Origin: a virus
Virus genome (UHGV): UHGV-1590541
Reading direction: 5' to 3' (one strand)
Length of the DNA: 11,760 bases
Shown here: piece by piece, positions 1-11,760 of the stretch
How the letters are laid out: every line of letters starts with the position of its first letter
Numbering within the stretch: position 1 is the stretch's first letter
Notes under the pieces: model-generated
What the model was told of the DNA's origin: nothing
What the model saw: the letters and a program-made list of their open reading frames with translations, nothing else
Database searches by the model: none
Position numbers and translations under genes: made by a program

Positions 1-516
1 GATTCTAACTTATCTTTGGCAGTCATTTTTACTGTTGTAGCGGGCGCAGGTAAGTCTTGCTGCTGTGGATTTTCTGTTAGTTGTTTACGAGAAGAAACAT
101 CGCCCCTGTTAGTTTGCTTCATGTTGATTACAGATGCGTTATGGGCATTATCAGCAGCAATTGACTGAAGTTTTACAAAAGTTTTTGAATCTGTTTTAGC
201 CAGAAGTAACCTATTTCCCGTAAACATTGCCTTAAAAGTGATAGTTTTTTTCGTCTTGTCCGCCGCACCAAGCAAACCTCCAATGACCAACCCTGCACCA
301 CCAAAGATTAATCCACCAAGCAAACCTGCGCCTGCCGCCTTACCTATACGGCTTTCCTCTTCACTATCCGCAAGTTCAATCGATAAAAGCTCTTCTTTCA
401 GATTTAATACAATATTTTCAGGAAAGCCTTGTTTTGGTTTTTTGGCAACCGAACCCCATGCTTGCCCACCCTTTAGGAAAACTTCCTGCGATAACCTGAA
501 TCCCTGCCATGTTCAT
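1..516 (-). CDS. Glycine-zipper membrane protein, partial (runs off window start), apparently frameshifted at an A6 tract
   Basis: ATG at 516 with strong SD (AAGGTGA, 5-6 nt upstream) opens a 32-codon frame (MNMAGIQVIAGSFPKGWASMGFGCQKTKTRLS) that stops at 418-420. The +1 frame is open from 512 through position 1 and encodes a GxxxG-rich segment (IGKAAGAGLLGGLIFGGAGLVIGGLLGAA) with no plausible start of its own. The frames meet at the homopolymer at 438-443. The plus-strand ORF 238-531 is its antisense shadow. Confidence 0.45.
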
Positions 517-600
517 CACCTTTTACATTAAAATTTCAGAACGCAGCATGATGCCGCCTTTGTCTTTTTTCTGATCCCATGGTAATTCAGCTGTTATTTT

Positions 601-1587
601 CTATTTAAGAATAAAACGGTATTTACTGTCAGGAGTGCTTTGCTGATCAAGTAGCAGTGAACGACATGGAGCAGTCAAAACCCGAGCATAACTACCATCA
701 GGGCTTATGTTAATGTAACAAACCTTGCCCTTAACACTATAATTTTCGGGGACGGATGCCTTTGCTGATACAGTAAATTTAAGGGTATGCCAGCCCGTTT
801 TTTGCTTGTAGCTTGAAACCGAATGGAAATCATCTGAGTACTTATTTAACCCTGGAAACATGCTGCGCAGTGCGGGGATGGAATCTTCTATTATTTTATC
901 GTTGGTTTTAATGTTAAAAACGCTGGTTTCAGTAGAAGCTACTGCTTTGGCATTTCCCCATTTACCAGCGAACACAATCATTCCCACGAAAAATATTGCT
1001 ACAAGAACTAACACTCCCCCCAACACTACTACATGAGGCTTCCGGCTTCTGGTTGGTACAGTTGCGACTGATTTTGCACCGCTTTCCGATGGAGGTGATA
1101 GAGTTTTACTCTCATCACGAATATTCAGCAGATCATCAAAATAACCAAACACAGCCTGCAACTGCTCTTTGTCTAGGCCTTTAAGATGGGTTGTACCGAA
1201 ATGCTTCAGACAGTATCTGTCACGGTCAAGACGATACCCAGGGTCAGTAAGCGCCATTATTTTGCTGACCAGAAGATTACAGTCCTTCATATTCTGGATC
1301 TGTTGTGCATATCTCTGAAGGATCTCAACCGCACCATGATAATCAGCCGCAGTCATTTCATTAACTGTTTTGGTATTAAGTTTCGTGTGGATCGTCATCC
1401 ATAGCTCGCGCTTACTTTCCCCCAGATCAACCAATTCATCCATCAATCTGTGTAAATCGCGTTTTTGCAGCAACGAAATTGGTTGCTGGGCCGAAGGAAG
1501 TATGTCAGCAGAATAGTTATGAATGGTAACATCACCGCTGACAACGTTACCCACATCCCCGTTAACTGTTTGCTTCTCTTTACTCAT
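601..1587 (-). CDS. Single-pass membrane protein of unknown function (328 aa), co-transcribed with the prophage repressor
   Basis: ATG at 1587 overlaps the repressor stop (ATGA, 1584-1587). One predicted TM helix at about aa 185-207 (VVVLGGVLVLVAIFFVGMIVFAG) preceded by basic RSRKPH, implying N-in topology. The C-terminal domain of about 120 aa carries two Cys. No family recognised by eye. Lower GC than the phage core. Confidence 0.8.
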   Translation of the reverse strand: MSKEKQTVNGDVGNVVSGDVTIHNYSADILPSAQQPISLLQKRDLHRLMDELVDLGESKRELWMTIHTKLNTKTVNEMTAADYHGAVEILQRYAQQIQNMKDCNLLVSKIMALTDPGYRLDRDRYCLKHFGTTHLKGLDKEQLQAVFGYFDDLLNIRDESKTLSPPSESGAKSVATVPTRSRKPHVVVLGGVLVLVAIFFVGMIVFAGKWGNAKAVASTETSVFNIKTNDKIIEDSIPALRSMFPGLNKYSDDFHSVSSYKQKTGWHTLKFTVSAKASVPENYSVKGKVCYINISPDGSYARVLTAPCRSLLLDQQSTPDSKYRFILK

Positions 1588-2009
1588 CTTCTCTTGGTAT
1601 TTTTGTTCATTATTCCACCTGTTCCTATGGTTACGTTACCTTTGATAACATTCCCCAGAACATCTCCATGAATAACCTGTTCCGCCCGTTCTCTGGAGGA
1701 GCCAGTAGTCAAGGCCGACAAAACTGAACCTTTGACCTGTAATGGTGCCTGCCGGTAGTGCTGCAGTAACTCCATTTCATCACGTGATAAAGTTATACCT
1801 GATGACTCCCCGGTAAGAATGAACTGTACATTGGCCCCAATTCTTGCAAAGGCTGCAAGTAACTCACCTCCGGGAACAGCAACCCCTCGTTCATATTTCC
1901 CCCACATTTCTCTTGAAACGCCACAAAGGGCTGCTACTTCAGCCTGCTTGAGTGATAACCGCGAACGCTCAGCTTTGAACCGCGACGCGCAAAGAGAATC
2001 AAAATTCAC
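1584..2009 (-). CDS. Prophage repressor, XRE/cI-type helix-turn-helix (start probably GTG at 2009; longest ORF reaches ATG 2045)
   Basis: HTH segment LSLKQAEVAALCGVSREMWGKYERG, typical of XRE-family repressors. Divergent from the Ner-like gene. GTG at 2009 has a GAGG SD 5 nt upstream, whereas ATG 2045 has none and would leave only 50 bp for divergent promoters. C-terminal tail has a GDV/GNV repeat. Confidence 0.8.
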   Translation of the reverse strand: MNFDSLCASRFKAERSRLSLKQAEVAALCGVSREMWGKYERGVAVPGGELLAAFARIGANVQFILTGESSGITLSRDEMELLQHYRQAPLQVKGSVLSALTTGSSRERAEQVIHGDVLGNVIKGNVTIGTGGIMNKNTKRR

Positions 2010-2095
2010 ATAAACCTCATTGACAATGAGAACAATAGTTCTCATAATCTATCACATATAAAACAAACATCATTGCATCAACAAAGGAGACAACA
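2010..2095. promoter_or_regulatory. Divergent immunity control region: candidate operators plus rightward sigma70 early promoter
   Basis: Perfect palindrome CTCATTG-A-CAATGAG (2016-2030) overlapping a second dyad GAGAAC-AATA-GTTCTC (2028-2043). TTGACA (2020-2025), 17-bp spacer, CATAAT (2043-2048) facing the Ner-like gene. CACATAT motif at 2053-2059. Confidence 0.5.
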
Positions 2096-2284
2096 ATGAC
2101 TTCCGAACAAGTTAAAAATCTCTTCCGTCAGCGTGGTATCACGTTTACCCGCTGGGCCGAAGAACACGGCTACAGCCGCAATGAGGTCTATCGTGTTCTC
2201 AATGGACAGACCAAAGCTCGTTACGGCAAAGCCCATGAAATTGCCGTAAAACTGGGATTAAAACCCACGTCAAATGCGGCATAA
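2096..2284 (+). CDS. ner: Ner/Cro-like small DNA-binding regulator (62 aa)
   Basis: AGGAG RBS 6 nt upstream of ATG. Position is divergent from the repressor at the head of the early operon. Sequence RWAEEHGYSRNEVYRVLNGQ...AHEIAVKLGL looks like a small HTH protein. Assignment to Ner rather than another Cro-like family rests mainly on synteny. Confidence 0.7.
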   Translation: MTSEQVKNLFRQRGITFTRWAEEHGYSRNEVYRVLNGQTKARYGKAHEIAVKLGLKPTSNAA

Positions 2285-8447: not shown

Positions 8448-9127
8448 CAGACCAGAATAAACACATTGAGAAACTGAAAAAGTTGCTGGCGCTGGCCGCA
8501 TCCGGCAACCCGCACGAGGCCGCTCTGGCACTGCGCCGAGCCCGTAAACTGATGGATGTTCACGGCATCACACATTCCGACATTGCTATGAGTGATATTG
8601 ATGAAACCATCAGTCACTACTGGCCGACAGGCAGTCTCCGTCCACCGCGCTACATGCTGGGCCTGATGAACATCATCCGCGAGGTATTTGGTGTTAACTC
8701 CATCATTCACCCCGGCACGCATCCGTCTGTGGGGTTCTACGGCAACCGGGAACGTGCGGCACTGGCTGCATACACCTGGGAAGTGCTGGCCCGTCAGCTG
8801 AAAAAGGCGCGTCAGCAGTATATCAGTGCACAGAACAAAAGAATAAAAACCGCCACCCGCACCAGCCGTGGAGACCAGTTTGCCGAAGGCTGGGTGCTGG
8901 CCGTTATCAGTGAAATACAGTCCTTTGCCCTGACCGATGATGAGCGTGAACTGATGCAGCAGTGGCTGGAACATAAATACCCGCAGACGCAAACCACCAG
9001 GGCGCGTAAACCGGGAAGAAGCCGCAATGGCGACGCCTCGCGCTATGCGGGGTTTCGTGAAGGGCAGAACGTCAGACTGCACCGCCCGGTCAGTGGGCAG
9101 GAACAACAGAAACTGGAGGCCAGATGA
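8444..9127 (+). CDS. DUF2786-like phage protein (227 aa; longest ORF starts at 8408)
   Basis: N-terminal KHIEKLKKLLALAASGNPHEAALALRRARKLM matches the DUF2786 signature as I remember it. ATG 8444 is coupled to the upstream stop. Confidence 0.7.
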   Translation: MTDQNKHIEKLKKLLALAASGNPHEAALALRRARKLMDVHGITHSDIAMSDIDETISHYWPTGSLRPPRYMLGLMNIIREVFGVNSIIHPGTHPSVGFYGNRERAALAAYTWEVLARQLKKARQQYISAQNKRIKTATRTSRGDQFAEGWVLAVISEIQSFALTDDERELMQQWLEHKYPQTQTTRARKPGRSRNGDASRYAGFREGQNVRLHRPVSGQEQQKLEAR

Positions 9128-9354
9128 TTACGCTATCAGGTAAAAGCCGGAAATTAAAAGCCTGCCGAATATCTGCCAGATACCTTTTTGCCCGCGCCTT
9201 TTTTAAGAACGTCAGGCCGGGGATCACAATTGGTGTTATTGCCGGACGCGAACAGGTTGAAAAATACATGTCAGGTGCATGGTGGAATAACGACCCTGTC
9301 ATTGCTGCCCGTAATATTCATATCGAATGGGGAGGTATTCAGAATGACTACTGA
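9124..9354 (+). CDS. Hypothetical small early protein (76 aa)
   Basis: ATG overlaps the upstream stop (ATGA at 9124-9127). No recognisable domain. Confidence 0.5.
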   Translation: MITLSGKSRKLKACRISARYLFARAFFKNVRPGITIGVIAGREQVEKYMSGAWWNNDPVIAARNIHIEWGGIQNDY

Positions 9355-9550
9355 AACCATTGTCTGTTTTCTTTTCTGGTATATGTACGCAGGATCATGC
9401 AGCGCAAGACTTCATCGTTCCCTGGGCTATGGCAGGCACTACGACACCGCGCATTACATCCTGTACATGACCGCCGTCATGTTGTTCTGGCCAGTCACCC
9501 TGCCAGCTGCAACCGACATTGTTGCCGACAGACTGAAAAAAAGGAGATGA
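9344..9550 (+). CDS. Small hydrophobic/membrane protein (68 aa); internal start of the longer ORF 9188-9550
   Basis: GGGGAGG RBS 7 nt upstream of ATG 9344. Two hydrophobic segments (TIVCFLFWYMYAG and ILYMTAVMLFWPVTLPAA). Stop lies 1 nt before the gemA-like start. Confidence 0.5.
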   Translation: MTTETIVCFLFWYMYAGSCSARLHRSLGYGRHYDTAHYILYMTAVMLFWPVTLPAATDIVADRLKKRR

Positions 9551-9551
9551 T

Positions 9552-10001
9552 ATGCAGAAAAAACGCCTGATACAGCTTATCCATATTGCCCGTAATGAAC
9601 TGGGTATGGATGAAGACACCTACCGCCAGATGTTACAGGGGCTGACCGGTAAAGCCTCAACCAAAGGAATGGATACCACACAACTAAACTGCGTGCTGGA
9701 ATCCATGAAAAAGAAAGGCTTTCGCGTTAAACCAGCCAGAAAAGCCAGCTCCGGTTTACCGCTGGATAACCATCCGCAGTCCAGGAAAATTCGTGCGCTA
9801 TGGCTTGAAATGGCTGCTGCCGGCATTGTTCGTGACCGTTCAGAAAATGCATTAGCGAGGTGGATCAAGCGGGAAACGGGCATCAGCGCCCTGCGCTGGC
9901 TCAGTACTGAACAGGCAAGCAGTGTTATTGAGAAACTGAAGAAGTGGCAGCGCAGAGCTGCGGGAGTCAAACATGAGCGACCTGAATCAGTTTCGAAGTA
10001 A
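9552..10001 (+). CDS. gemA: GemA-like regulatory protein (Mu gp16 family, DUF1018)
   Basis: AGGAG RBS. LIQLIHIARNELGMDEDTYRQML..LTGKAS and RKIRALWLEMAAAGIV resemble the Mu gp16/GemA family. Sits immediately upstream of and overlapping mor, as in Mu. Confidence 0.8.
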   Translation: MQKKRLIQLIHIARNELGMDEDTYRQMLQGLTGKASTKGMDTTQLNCVLESMKKKGFRVKPARKASSGLPLDNHPQSRKIRALWLEMAAAGIVRDRSENALARWIKRETGISALRWLSTEQASSVIEKLKKWQRRAAGVKHERPESVSK

Positions 10002-10525: not shown

Positions 10526-10776
10526 CCAAGTCCCCGTGTCAAAAAGTCATCTGTGTAAGATTCCAATCATACATATGGACTCAGATTGGCCTGTGTCCGT
10601 GCTTCCTAAAGGAATTCACAGATTCAGTCCTAATCATGATGACACATTAGCGAAGCTATGCCATGTCAGATACAGGTTCACTTAGTCGCGGTCTTACCAG
10701 TCTGGCCTTTAATACTCGTTAATCCTTAGCAATCAGTAGGTTGGTTTTATTTTTCAACAGACAGAAGTAGTTTCAT

Positions 10777-11760
10777 TTACATATATGCAGCTCCCATCAC
10801 TTCTTCTGGTGAAATCTCTTTATCGTTGGTTAGCAATACCCAGAGCACTCTGGCATTTTTGTTGTTCAGCGCTACGGTGGCAACATTTTTATTCCGCCGC
10901 GAGACTGGTCTGCCCAGCCAGCTTTCCTGGACCTGTCTGCCCTTTCTGGCGTTTGACACTGTCTTCGCACCATGGAACAGTAGCGTTCTGATATAGACAT
11001 CGTCCCGTTTACTGATAGACCCCAGCGTGTTTTTACCTACGCTGAAGCACTGTCGGGGAACCAGTCCAAGCCATGCAGCAAGCTGACGCCGGTTTTTGAA
11101 GCCGATACTACCCGGTGCTGACAATTGCAGTGGTGGTAAGAATAGCAATCCCCGAAATGGTGGCAATTTTCCTGCACAGTTCGTCGTTCCCGACGTGTTC
11201 GTTGCTAACGGCTTCTATGGTTTCAATGTGTACGCTCAGTTGTTTCACATTTTCATTAGAGATAGGACGACAGCTGTCTGAACGGCATTGTTAAACAGTT
11301 TTCCGCGTCTTCAAGCAGGGCAGGGACATGACGACTGATCGCTACAGTGTCGGGCGGGAGAACGATGCCAAATTCAGCCAGTAATCCTCTGATCTGGTTT
11401 ATCTGCGCAGTCCTTGATTTAACAAACCCCGTCAGGGCACGATGAAAAGACAGTAATGACTACTGCTCAGGCGTCTTGATGCTGACAAACCGCATATTAG
11501 GTCGGGTAACGGCTTCACAGATGGCCTCGGCAGCAGCCATATCATTCTTGTTTGTTTTCACATATGGCTTTACAAATCGCGGGCATTAGTCTGACATTAT
11601 GCCCCTAAGTAGACAGCATTCTCACTAATGACGCGCTCCGGCGCAGACCTCCATCCCAATCCGACAGGAAGACATATTCGCGAAGAATACGGGCATCAGG
11701 GAACGTTTAATCCGTTTTCTGAGCTTAGATTTTTCTGTTCCTACCCAGACCGTGGATTTG
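10777..11760 (-). pseudogene. IS110-family (DEDD) transposase, decayed: multiple in-frame stops and frameshifts; N-terminus beyond window end
   Basis: Minus-strand translation gives segments in three frames that read collinearly like an IS110-family transposase: FFANMSSCRIGMEVCAGARH, PYVKTNKNDMAAAEAICEAVTRPNMRFVSIKTPEQ, IRGLLAEFGIV, ISGIAILTTTAIV, RRQLAAWLGLVPRQ...ISKRDDVYIRTLLFHGAKTV, VATVALNNKNARVLW. In-frame stops at 11622-11627 (TAG TGA), 11586-11588 (TAA) and 11460-11462 (TAG); frame changes near 11256 and near 11110-11125. Confidence 0.8.

Follow-up and report, generated by a model that had tools for sequence, protein, structure and literature searches.

In phage lambda, the repressor gene cI is followed on the same strand by the accessory genes rexA and rexB, one of which encodes a membrane protein (RexB, which is multi-pass), and in Vibrio phage K139 the operon cI-orf2-glo-int has accessory genes for envelope or periplasmic proteins after the repressor and ahead of the next module, among them the gene for Glo, which is annotated as a periplasmic exclusion protein. 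Adjacent, co-oriented genes can also be linked through a short motif shared by their products, as in the amyloid signalling pairs HET-s/NWD2 of fungi, BASS1-10 of bacteria and Bab/Agp (BASS11) of Escherichia coli. Bacterial amyloid signalling motifs are defined by a composition rich in N, G, Q, V and I and poor in P, L and K, and by their arrangement, C-terminal in the protein encoded upstream and N-terminal in the one encoded downstream (10.1101/2020.01.06.895854), an arrangement on which the E. coli Bab/Agp defence pair is also built (10.1101/2024.11.07.622273). Pairs with matched terminal motifs are known as a kind, and what is new in the locus described here is the setting, that of a prophage repressor and a membrane partner. 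The locus lies in a stretch of 11,760 nucleotides from the virus genome UHGV-1590541 (the window, at its full length). We propose that positions 601-2045 form a two-gene immunity cassette, consisting of an XRE-type repressor and a coupled inner-membrane protein of 328 residues, in which the repressor tail pairs directly with the N-terminus of its partner, a reading to which we would give an even chance of being correct. A preliminary description of the same DNA had taken the two genes that follow the repressor for a candidate Rex-like exclusion or lysogenic-conversion system; it did not mention the terminal motif that repressor and partner share, which is the most informative feature of the locus.

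The first approximately 20 residues of the partner are a near copy of the last approximately 20 residues of the repressor (the repressor ends in ...EQVIHGDVLGNVIKGNVTIGTGGIMNKNTKRR and the partner starts with MSKEKQTVNGDVGNVVSGDVTIHNY), and a matched pair was found in 51 of the 55 prophage loci that we read, these being a non-redundant main set of 46 pairs, seven more distant loci and the two loci L092 and L093. When the last 40 residues of each repressor were scored against the first 35 residues of its partner by Smith-Waterman alignment, cognate pairs reached a mean score of 54.9 (minimum 36, n = 46), compared with 20.5 for shuffled partners (99th percentile 34) and 15.6 for a repressor-internal control, and every pair of the main set scored above the 99th percentile of the shuffles. 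A match was also present in five of the seven distant loci. The motif occurs in distinct classes, GDVGNVxSGDVTI in Mu-like prophages of Enterobacterales, NRxAGRDF in P2-like prophages and FHGxVGQxxAGDIxN in Pseudomonas (the class A motif is GDVGNVVSGDVTI, and NRVAGRDFNEN is an example of class B). In P2/186-like prophages of Enterobacterales, where the gene of the partner, a Flk_N protein, lies between repressor and integrase, the repressor ends in ...NISGQGNRVAGRDFNENKK and the partner carries MTVNSTGEQNRVAGRDFNENK; in BcepMu-like prophages of Pseudomonas the corresponding segments are ...KQTFHGSVGQSVAGNVTN... and MSQDFHGDVGQAAAGDINN.

Repressor and partner switch motif class together among the Mu-like and P2-like prophages that Enterobacterales and Pseudomonas carry. 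Arranged by class, the matrix of scores is dominated by its diagonal, and 45 of 46 repressor tails matched partners of their own class best. Simple drift after an old duplication would have left foreign partners equally similar; since tails prefer their own partners, the two ends have been kept matched. Furthermore, the two copies of the motif agree at 0.62, 0.73 and 0.34 of first, second and third codon positions, respectively, and identical residues are encoded by the same codon in 37% of cases. As third-position identity is near random and codon sharing is at this level, selection acts on the peptide. An origin of the motif as a DNA repeat or by gene conversion was ruled out by the same third-position value. 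A programmed frameshift that would fuse repressor and partner was also considered and ruled out, because the spacing of the two genes varies from -4 to +289 nucleotides across loci (-4 to +18 in the 46 main-set pairs and +30 to +289 in the five matched distant loci).

The repressor of the window, which matched HTH_31 (E 4.7e-07) and HTH_3 in Pfam, is homologous (29-42% identity, E 1e-13 to 1e-26) to the repressors that precede the Flk_N gene in prophages of the P2-like type and of Pseudomonas. Because the repressors are homologous across motif classes, the pair is old and has evolved as a unit. The tail motif is kept in the repressors of a Serratia prophage (L005) and of a metagenomic locus (L002), and 18 homologues of the partner all have G10, G13, N14, V15, V16, S17, G18, V20 and I22. 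With a median length of 18.5 residues, the motif ends approximately 4 residues before the C-terminus of the repressor and starts approximately 2 residues after the initial Met of the partner. It is enriched in N (4.3-fold), G (2.4-fold), V (1.5-fold) and I (1.4-fold) and depleted in P (0.10-fold), L (0.27-fold) and K (0.52-fold), Q being not enriched (1.06-fold), and some partners contain two pseudo-repeats.

The inheritance of the genes around the motif gives a second line of evidence. Comparison with related prophages, proposed in the preliminary description as a way of seeing whether this slot is variable, showed that the cargo carried between repressor and holin does vary. In two sister E. 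coli prophages (L097 and L098) the repressors are tail-less, ending in ...QPKPGKIAG without the motif, and there is no Flk_N gene, the slot being occupied by a Dam-like methylase gene and other small genes. Another relative (L096) keeps the repressor and the 328-residue gene, at 92% identity, and has the second gene of the window, which encodes a PH_gly_zipper protein, replaced by genes for a 203-residue protein and a DUF2441 protein. In the Serratia prophage and in a metagenomic locus, repressor and partner are followed by a methylase gene, and in Citrobacter prophages (L123) the PH_gly_zipper gene lies 57 nucleotides after a different repressor, with no Flk_N gene. Because L096 keeps both genes, the tail-less sisters have no Flk_N gene and the second gene is swapped separately, gene content identifies the repressor and the 328-residue gene as one unit, strictly co-inherited with respect to repressor type, and the PH_gly_zipper gene as separate from it. 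Homology to prophages of other immunity types breaks at 2043/2044, which is the start of the repressor, as read in a spread sample of 634 matching E. coli genomes. A near-consensus promoter-like site of the sigma-70 type at this position (Table 1) marks the operator region and the boundary of the module, and the repressor is divergent from this site and from the ner-like gene beyond it.

Table 1 Features of the repressor cassette and of the neighbouring gene in the window.
Feature	Position	Strand	Remarks
Promoter-like site	2020..2048	+	TTGACA-17-CATAAT, 11/12 matches; for the divergent early (ner-like) operon; overlaps the repressor start codon
Prophage repressor, 153 residues	1584..2045	-	XRE-type helix-turn-helix at residues ~20-68, then helical region and C-terminal tail
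Repressor C-terminal tail motif QVIHGDVLGNVIKGNVTIG, residues 123-141	1623..1679	-	Aligned to partner residues 3-22, Smith-Waterman score 55 vs shuffled mean 20.5
Membrane protein of 328 residues, partner of the repressor	601..1587	-	ATG and the repressor stop TGA share the sequence ATGA
Partner N-terminal motif QTVNGDVGNVVSGDVTIHN, residues 6-24	1516..1572	-	Matches the repressor tail
Flk_N cytoplasmic helical domain, residues ~31-158	1114..1497	-	PF27202
Transmembrane helix, single, residues ~185-207	967..1035	-	Kyte-Doolittle maximum 3.05; AlphaFold2 helix 188-207
Periplasmic alpha/beta domain, residues 221-328, with C290 and C308	604..927	-	AlphaFold2 predicted local distance difference test (pLDDT) >90
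PH_gly_zipper gene, frameshifted	1..510	-	phrog_12025, E 9e-108; PF27000 assigned to relatives

The reading frame of the partner and the overlap of its start codon with the repressor stop codon had been correctly described, and we read the two genes as translationally coupled. The expectation that they share a transcription unit and that envelope proteins are involved was borne out in general terms, no terminator-like site being present in 1-2400. The predicted architecture of the 328-residue protein, an N-in single-pass membrane protein with a large cytoplasmic domain and a periplasmic domain carrying two Cys, also agrees with our analysis, as there is one hydrophobic segment and the cytoplasmic part has no signal peptide; the N-in/C-out topology is supported because the C-terminal domain occurs alone behind lipoprotein signal peptides in other proteins. 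What did not hold is the statement that neither downstream protein belongs to a known family. The 328-residue protein, which is identical to WP_000031883.1, belongs to phrog_10002 (E 8e-228), its N-terminal 190 residues match phrog_5825, and it contains the Flk_N domain PF27202, precomputed for P0001 and for a Serratia homologue (the PF27202 model was absent from the local copy of Pfam and the assignment was taken from precomputed labels in a public protein collection); the protein of the second gene is assigned to the PH_gly_zipper family (PF27000, phrog_12025). We found 24 homologues of the 328-residue protein, including proteins of Morganella, Salmonella, Yersinia and Serratia. Some clusters of the partner are very common, one from Klebsiella being present on 754 contigs and one from E. 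coli on 355, and in databases the protein and its relatives are called "hypothetical" or "membrane protein" or bear a "Flk" label that was transferred.

An exhaustive profile search returned 114 representatives in two sets, with true Flk proteins as distant matches (bona fide Flk proteins recovered were P0115, P0117 and P0123). One set comprises proteins of approximately 200 residues made up of the N-terminal part and a C-terminal transmembrane anchor, and the other lipoproteins of 130-200 residues that contain the periplasmic domain only (such as P0029, P0033 and P0037). Because both modules also exist separately, the 328-residue protein is, by its sequence relationships, a fusion of the two. 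AlphaFold2 (AF2) models were confident for both domains, Flk_N and periplasmic, and C290 and C308 of the latter are invariant in 18 homologues. The fold of the periplasmic domain gave no significant match in PDB or BFVD, no solved or viral predicted structure matched significantly, and a sequence profile search of PDB returned nothing. In the cytoplasmic domain, the Flk_N proteins of alignments A1 and A2, very divergent as they are, all keep W63 and C126 and nearly all keep H67, and these residues could form a ligand, metal or redox site. Many of the stand-alone lipoproteins carry, in addition, a C-terminal motif with a second Cys pair, LPPTPDxKPPRxGCLxxxxPxxxTxWSCP (P0029, P0041, P0043 and P0073; L007 3986-4519), which is missing from the protein of the window.

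Residues 19-147 of the 328-residue protein gave a partial match to the NCBIfam Flk model NF007987 (E 2.9e-12), and the 46.6 bits obtained are far under the equivalog cut-off of 353, so that the prophage-encoded protein is not an Flk orthologue. It shares with Flk of Salmonella and E. coli a homologous cytoplasmic helical domain and a membrane anchor that is C-terminal to it, whereas Flk has tandem copies of the domain, no GDVGNV-type motif, no periplasmic domain and no repressor as a neighbour. Of 50,697 phage records searched by tblastn, only that of the P2-like Escherichia phage 520873 has the Flk_N partner. In this phage (NC_049344; L008 3784-4396) the gene of the partner is unannotated, split by a frameshift and located between repressor and integrase. 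Scans for related loci with the single proteins P0054 and P0034 returned nothing, and a search of the literature found no description of the repressor/partner cassette.

Taken together, we consider that repressor and partner probably bind each other, because the matched pair of motifs recurs in nearly all loci read, and we infer both this physical binding and the biological output of the cassette from the sequences. The N/G/V-rich segments of the repressor tail and of the partner N-terminus would pair through contacts of the beta-strand or beta-arch type, which would tether the repressor to the membrane on its cytoplasmic side or titrate it there. Availability, stability or activity of the repressor would in this way be tied to the state of the membrane protein, and lysogeny would be maintained or left accordingly. 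The periplasmic two-Cys domain, gained in this lineage, may provide an added envelope function, sensing or superinfection exclusion. Release of the repressor would probably occur without RecA-stimulated self-cleavage, since no peptidase domain was found among its Pfam hits; compared with PADLOC, it gave generic helix-turn-helix matches only (RmrA-type, E 5e-05).

Several observations weigh against this proposal. Four of the 55 loci break the motif rule. In L092 and L093, both from Pseudomonas in IMG/VR, the partner has an N-terminal extension of 35-50 residues, the repressor lacks the motif and the genes are 95 nucleotides apart; L131, which lies by SNase and HicAB genes and not in an immunity region, encodes a Flk_N-like protein of 262 residues that has Cys motifs and a coiled coil; and in L132 the motif match is weak. 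Co-variation within a class is also weak, and the signal comes from approximately 3-4 independent classes. The AF2 model of the partner alone has a pLDDT of approximately 42 over the motif, and the first 30 residues are not confidently predicted; because of this low confidence the motif is not expected to be a self-standing folded domain. Moreover, the proposal leaves unexplained why a repressor should be co-expressed with its own titrator, and the Flk_N domain is of little help as a guide to function.

An alternative possibility, which we regard as doubtful, is that the 328-residue protein, with or without the PH_gly_zipper protein, is an envelope protein expressed in the lysogen that blocks or aborts infection by other phages, and that its linkage to the repressor is transcriptional only. 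Such a role would fit the membership of the gene in the repressor operon with no intervening terminator, the variable nature of the slot between repressor and holin, and the operon of K139, whose accessory genes hold a similar place, as does the Flk_N gene between repressor and integrase in the P2-like relatives. It would apply especially to the periplasmic domain, which is repressor-linked by itself in other phages: in Klebsiella phage KP12 (gp283) and in 11 non-redundant IMG/VR loci, a lone lipoprotein gene lies 27-35 nucleotides downstream of another repressor type, and lone PH_gly_zipper genes are also found directly after other repressors. However, comparison with K139 showed no sequence similarity to either Glo or orf2, and scans of Pfam, PADLOC and NCBIfam, the first two of which the preliminary description had called for, gave no RexA/RexB match and nothing significant for any other defence system (defence models were those of PADLOC-DB 2.0, with PDC-M19B as the best match at E 0.014, which is not significant). 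The parallel drawn with lambda cI-rexA-rexB does not extend beyond the position of the genes on the same strand downstream of the repressor, without a terminator, and the presence of a membrane protein among them: the two genes are inherited separately, L096 having the first without the second and L123 the reverse, and are therefore independent modules rather than a Rex-like pair, and the second is a pseudogene in the window. Of the original proposal, the unit with the repressor, the envelope nature of the proteins and the variable slot stand, and the Rex-like pair does not. A purely transcriptional linkage would also leave unexplained both the co-varying motif and the strict co-inheritance of Flk_N proteins with one repressor family in Mu-like and P2-like prophages.

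Two further explanations start from the shared motif. The matched termini could represent a new class of amyloid-like or prion-like motif wiring a membrane-anchored Flk_N sensor to a prophage repressor. Both motifs would then take up one common fold, cross-beta or beta-solenoid, and the repressor tail would be templated as the partner oligomerises, or the partner by the repressor; this would either switch the repressor off, giving SOS-independent induction, or switch a membrane effector on. We find this unlikely, although much of what defines the known pairs is present here: a motif that is C-terminal in the first and N-terminal in the second of two proteins encoded by adjacent, co-oriented genes (in all of the main set and five of the seven distant loci), as in NOD-like receptor (NLR)/effector pairs and in Bab/Agp, a length within the approximately 15-25 residues of BASS and HRAM motifs, the pseudo-repeats of some partners, and the N/G/V/I-rich, P/L/K-poor bias reported for BASS and beta-helical motifs, except that Q is not enriched. 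In contrast to the NLR-like or oligomerising sensor and the pore-forming or other cell-death effector of the amyloid pairs, the proteins here are an XRE helix-turn-helix repressor and a Flk_N protein with a transmembrane helix, with neither an NLR nor a known death effector; the motif matches no known amyloid-motif family in Pfam, and the same sequence data are explained by simple stoichiometric pairing of beta-strands. If templated co-assembly did occur, events at the envelope would throw the lysogeny switch or set off a membrane effector, providing SOS-independent control for the cassette-bearing Mu-like and P2-like prophages of Enterobacterales and Pseudomonas and extending amyloid-type signalling from immune NLR/effector pairs to viral transcriptional control. 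Finally, both termini could be tags read by a single third factor, such as a protease, an adaptor or a chaperone, for which the partner would act as a competitor or decoy. The C-terminus of the Mu repressor, which controls degradation by ClpXP, is a precedent, and in repressor and partner alike the motif lies at an unstructured end. We nevertheless consider a shared tag very improbable, because recognition by a host factor that is itself conserved would not make the two ends change class jointly, and classes A and B are both found in E. coli.

Turning to the second gene, the preliminary description had it as a continuous reading frame from 1 to 516, encoding a glycine-zipper membrane protein. 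The frame is in fact interrupted, stopping approximately 30 codons after the start, and the likely start is the ATG at 510 (MAGIQ..., as in the RefSeq annotation) and not 516. The frameshift results from the lack of 11 bp (ACACGATGGTA) at approximately 448 relative to the reference E. coli prophage L001 (NZ_CP024275.1), which is the sole difference in the first 2300 nucleotides; no other indel occurs in the first 8.8 kb. Positions 1-2300 are present in approximately 99 complete E. coli genomes at 99.5% identity; the undeleted form was found in 97 of 99, the other two giving partial matches only. A lineage polymorphism was rejected, as the deletion is in none of the 97 genomes aligned across the site, and it may be either a strain-specific mutation or an assembly error. 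The intact protein has 193 residues, with a glycine-zipper hairpin and a C-terminal transmembrane helix, this helix (the last approximately 20 residues) falling outside the left edge of the window. Since the copy in the window is frameshifted, the PH_gly_zipper assignment rests on relatives and on the phrog_12025 match, and the AF2 model (pLDDT 33) is unusable. From its distribution and its broken frame, the gene is read as separate, exchangeable cargo that is inactivated in this window. Flk_N proteins, lone periplasmic lipoproteins and PH_gly_zipper proteins each recur right after prophage repressors, identifying the repressor-holin interval, at the level of gene content, as a cargo hot-spot for at least three independent envelope modules. 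Just left of the window, L001 encodes on the opposite strand (11426-11902), with the holin gene on one side and the PH_gly_zipper gene on the other, a 158-residue P-loop protein labelled "ABC transporter ATPase", with weak Walker-A-type matches only, and versions of approximately 245 residues are found at the same position in L097 and L098.

Comparison with L001 identifies the prophage as BcepMu-like and transposable, with the repressor in the middle facing the lysis/late operon. In L001 the tail, head and lysis genes are all on one strand and are followed by the small P-loop protein, the 193-residue hypothetical protein, the 328-residue protein and the repressor, so ordered that the genes downstream of the repressor lie at the centre of the prophage, between repressor and holin; the early operon is on the opposite strand and ends after mor, at the disrupted host gene gspL. 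In the window, the genes on the plus strand from 2096 encode a ner-like protein, an IclR-like helix-turn-helix protein, DUF3102, a DDE transposase, an ExeA-like ATPase, Gam and Mor. This is the layout of BcepMu-like prophages, in which an early operon (ner-like to Gam and Mor) is divergent from the lysis/head/tail operon with the repressor and cargo in between, and RefSeq names a BcepMu_gp16 family protein in relatives; the cassette itself differs in that only one sequenced phage, the P2-like phage 520873, has the Flk_N partner. The argument that classical Mu has no genes between c and the left end is thus inapplicable: the classical arrangement, with the c repressor adjoining the prophage end, is not found in L001, where the repressor is central. 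Low GC content, which had been taken to suggest acquired cargo, was confirmed (0.41-0.44 over 1-1600, compared with 0.55-0.61 in the transposase and ATPase genes), but it is not peculiar to the cargo, because the repressor, ner-like and IclR-like genes are also AT-rich. An Rfam scan of the window found no RNA family.

The homology to L001 stops at approximately 10528, directly after mor, which places the end of the prophage there, and the flank beyond it is unlike that of L001 (gspL). Inspection of translations by eye found an IS110-family-like transposase fragment at 10777-11166 on the minus strand of this flank (10529-11760). Within the early region, which is 98-99.6% identical to L001 around this point, approximately 170 bp (9387-9557) could not be aligned and are bordered by clustered mismatches at 8794-9373 and 9561-9581, which suggests a small mosaic replacement. 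The ner-like protein of 62 residues (2096-2284, plus strand) is strikingly conserved with prophages of Pseudomonas chlororaphis (L104 2283-2495), the two sharing the motif ...NEVYRVLNGQxKAxYGKAHxIAVKLGLKP, and beside this conserved gene the repressor cassettes of E. coli and P. chlororaphis differ in motif class.

The envelope modules of the repressor-holin hot-spot are candidates for superinfection exclusion. For the exit from lysogeny of such Mu-like and P2-like prophages, a conserved partner in the membrane with its own copy of the repressor tail would connect the cell envelope to the lysogeny switch in a concrete and testable way.

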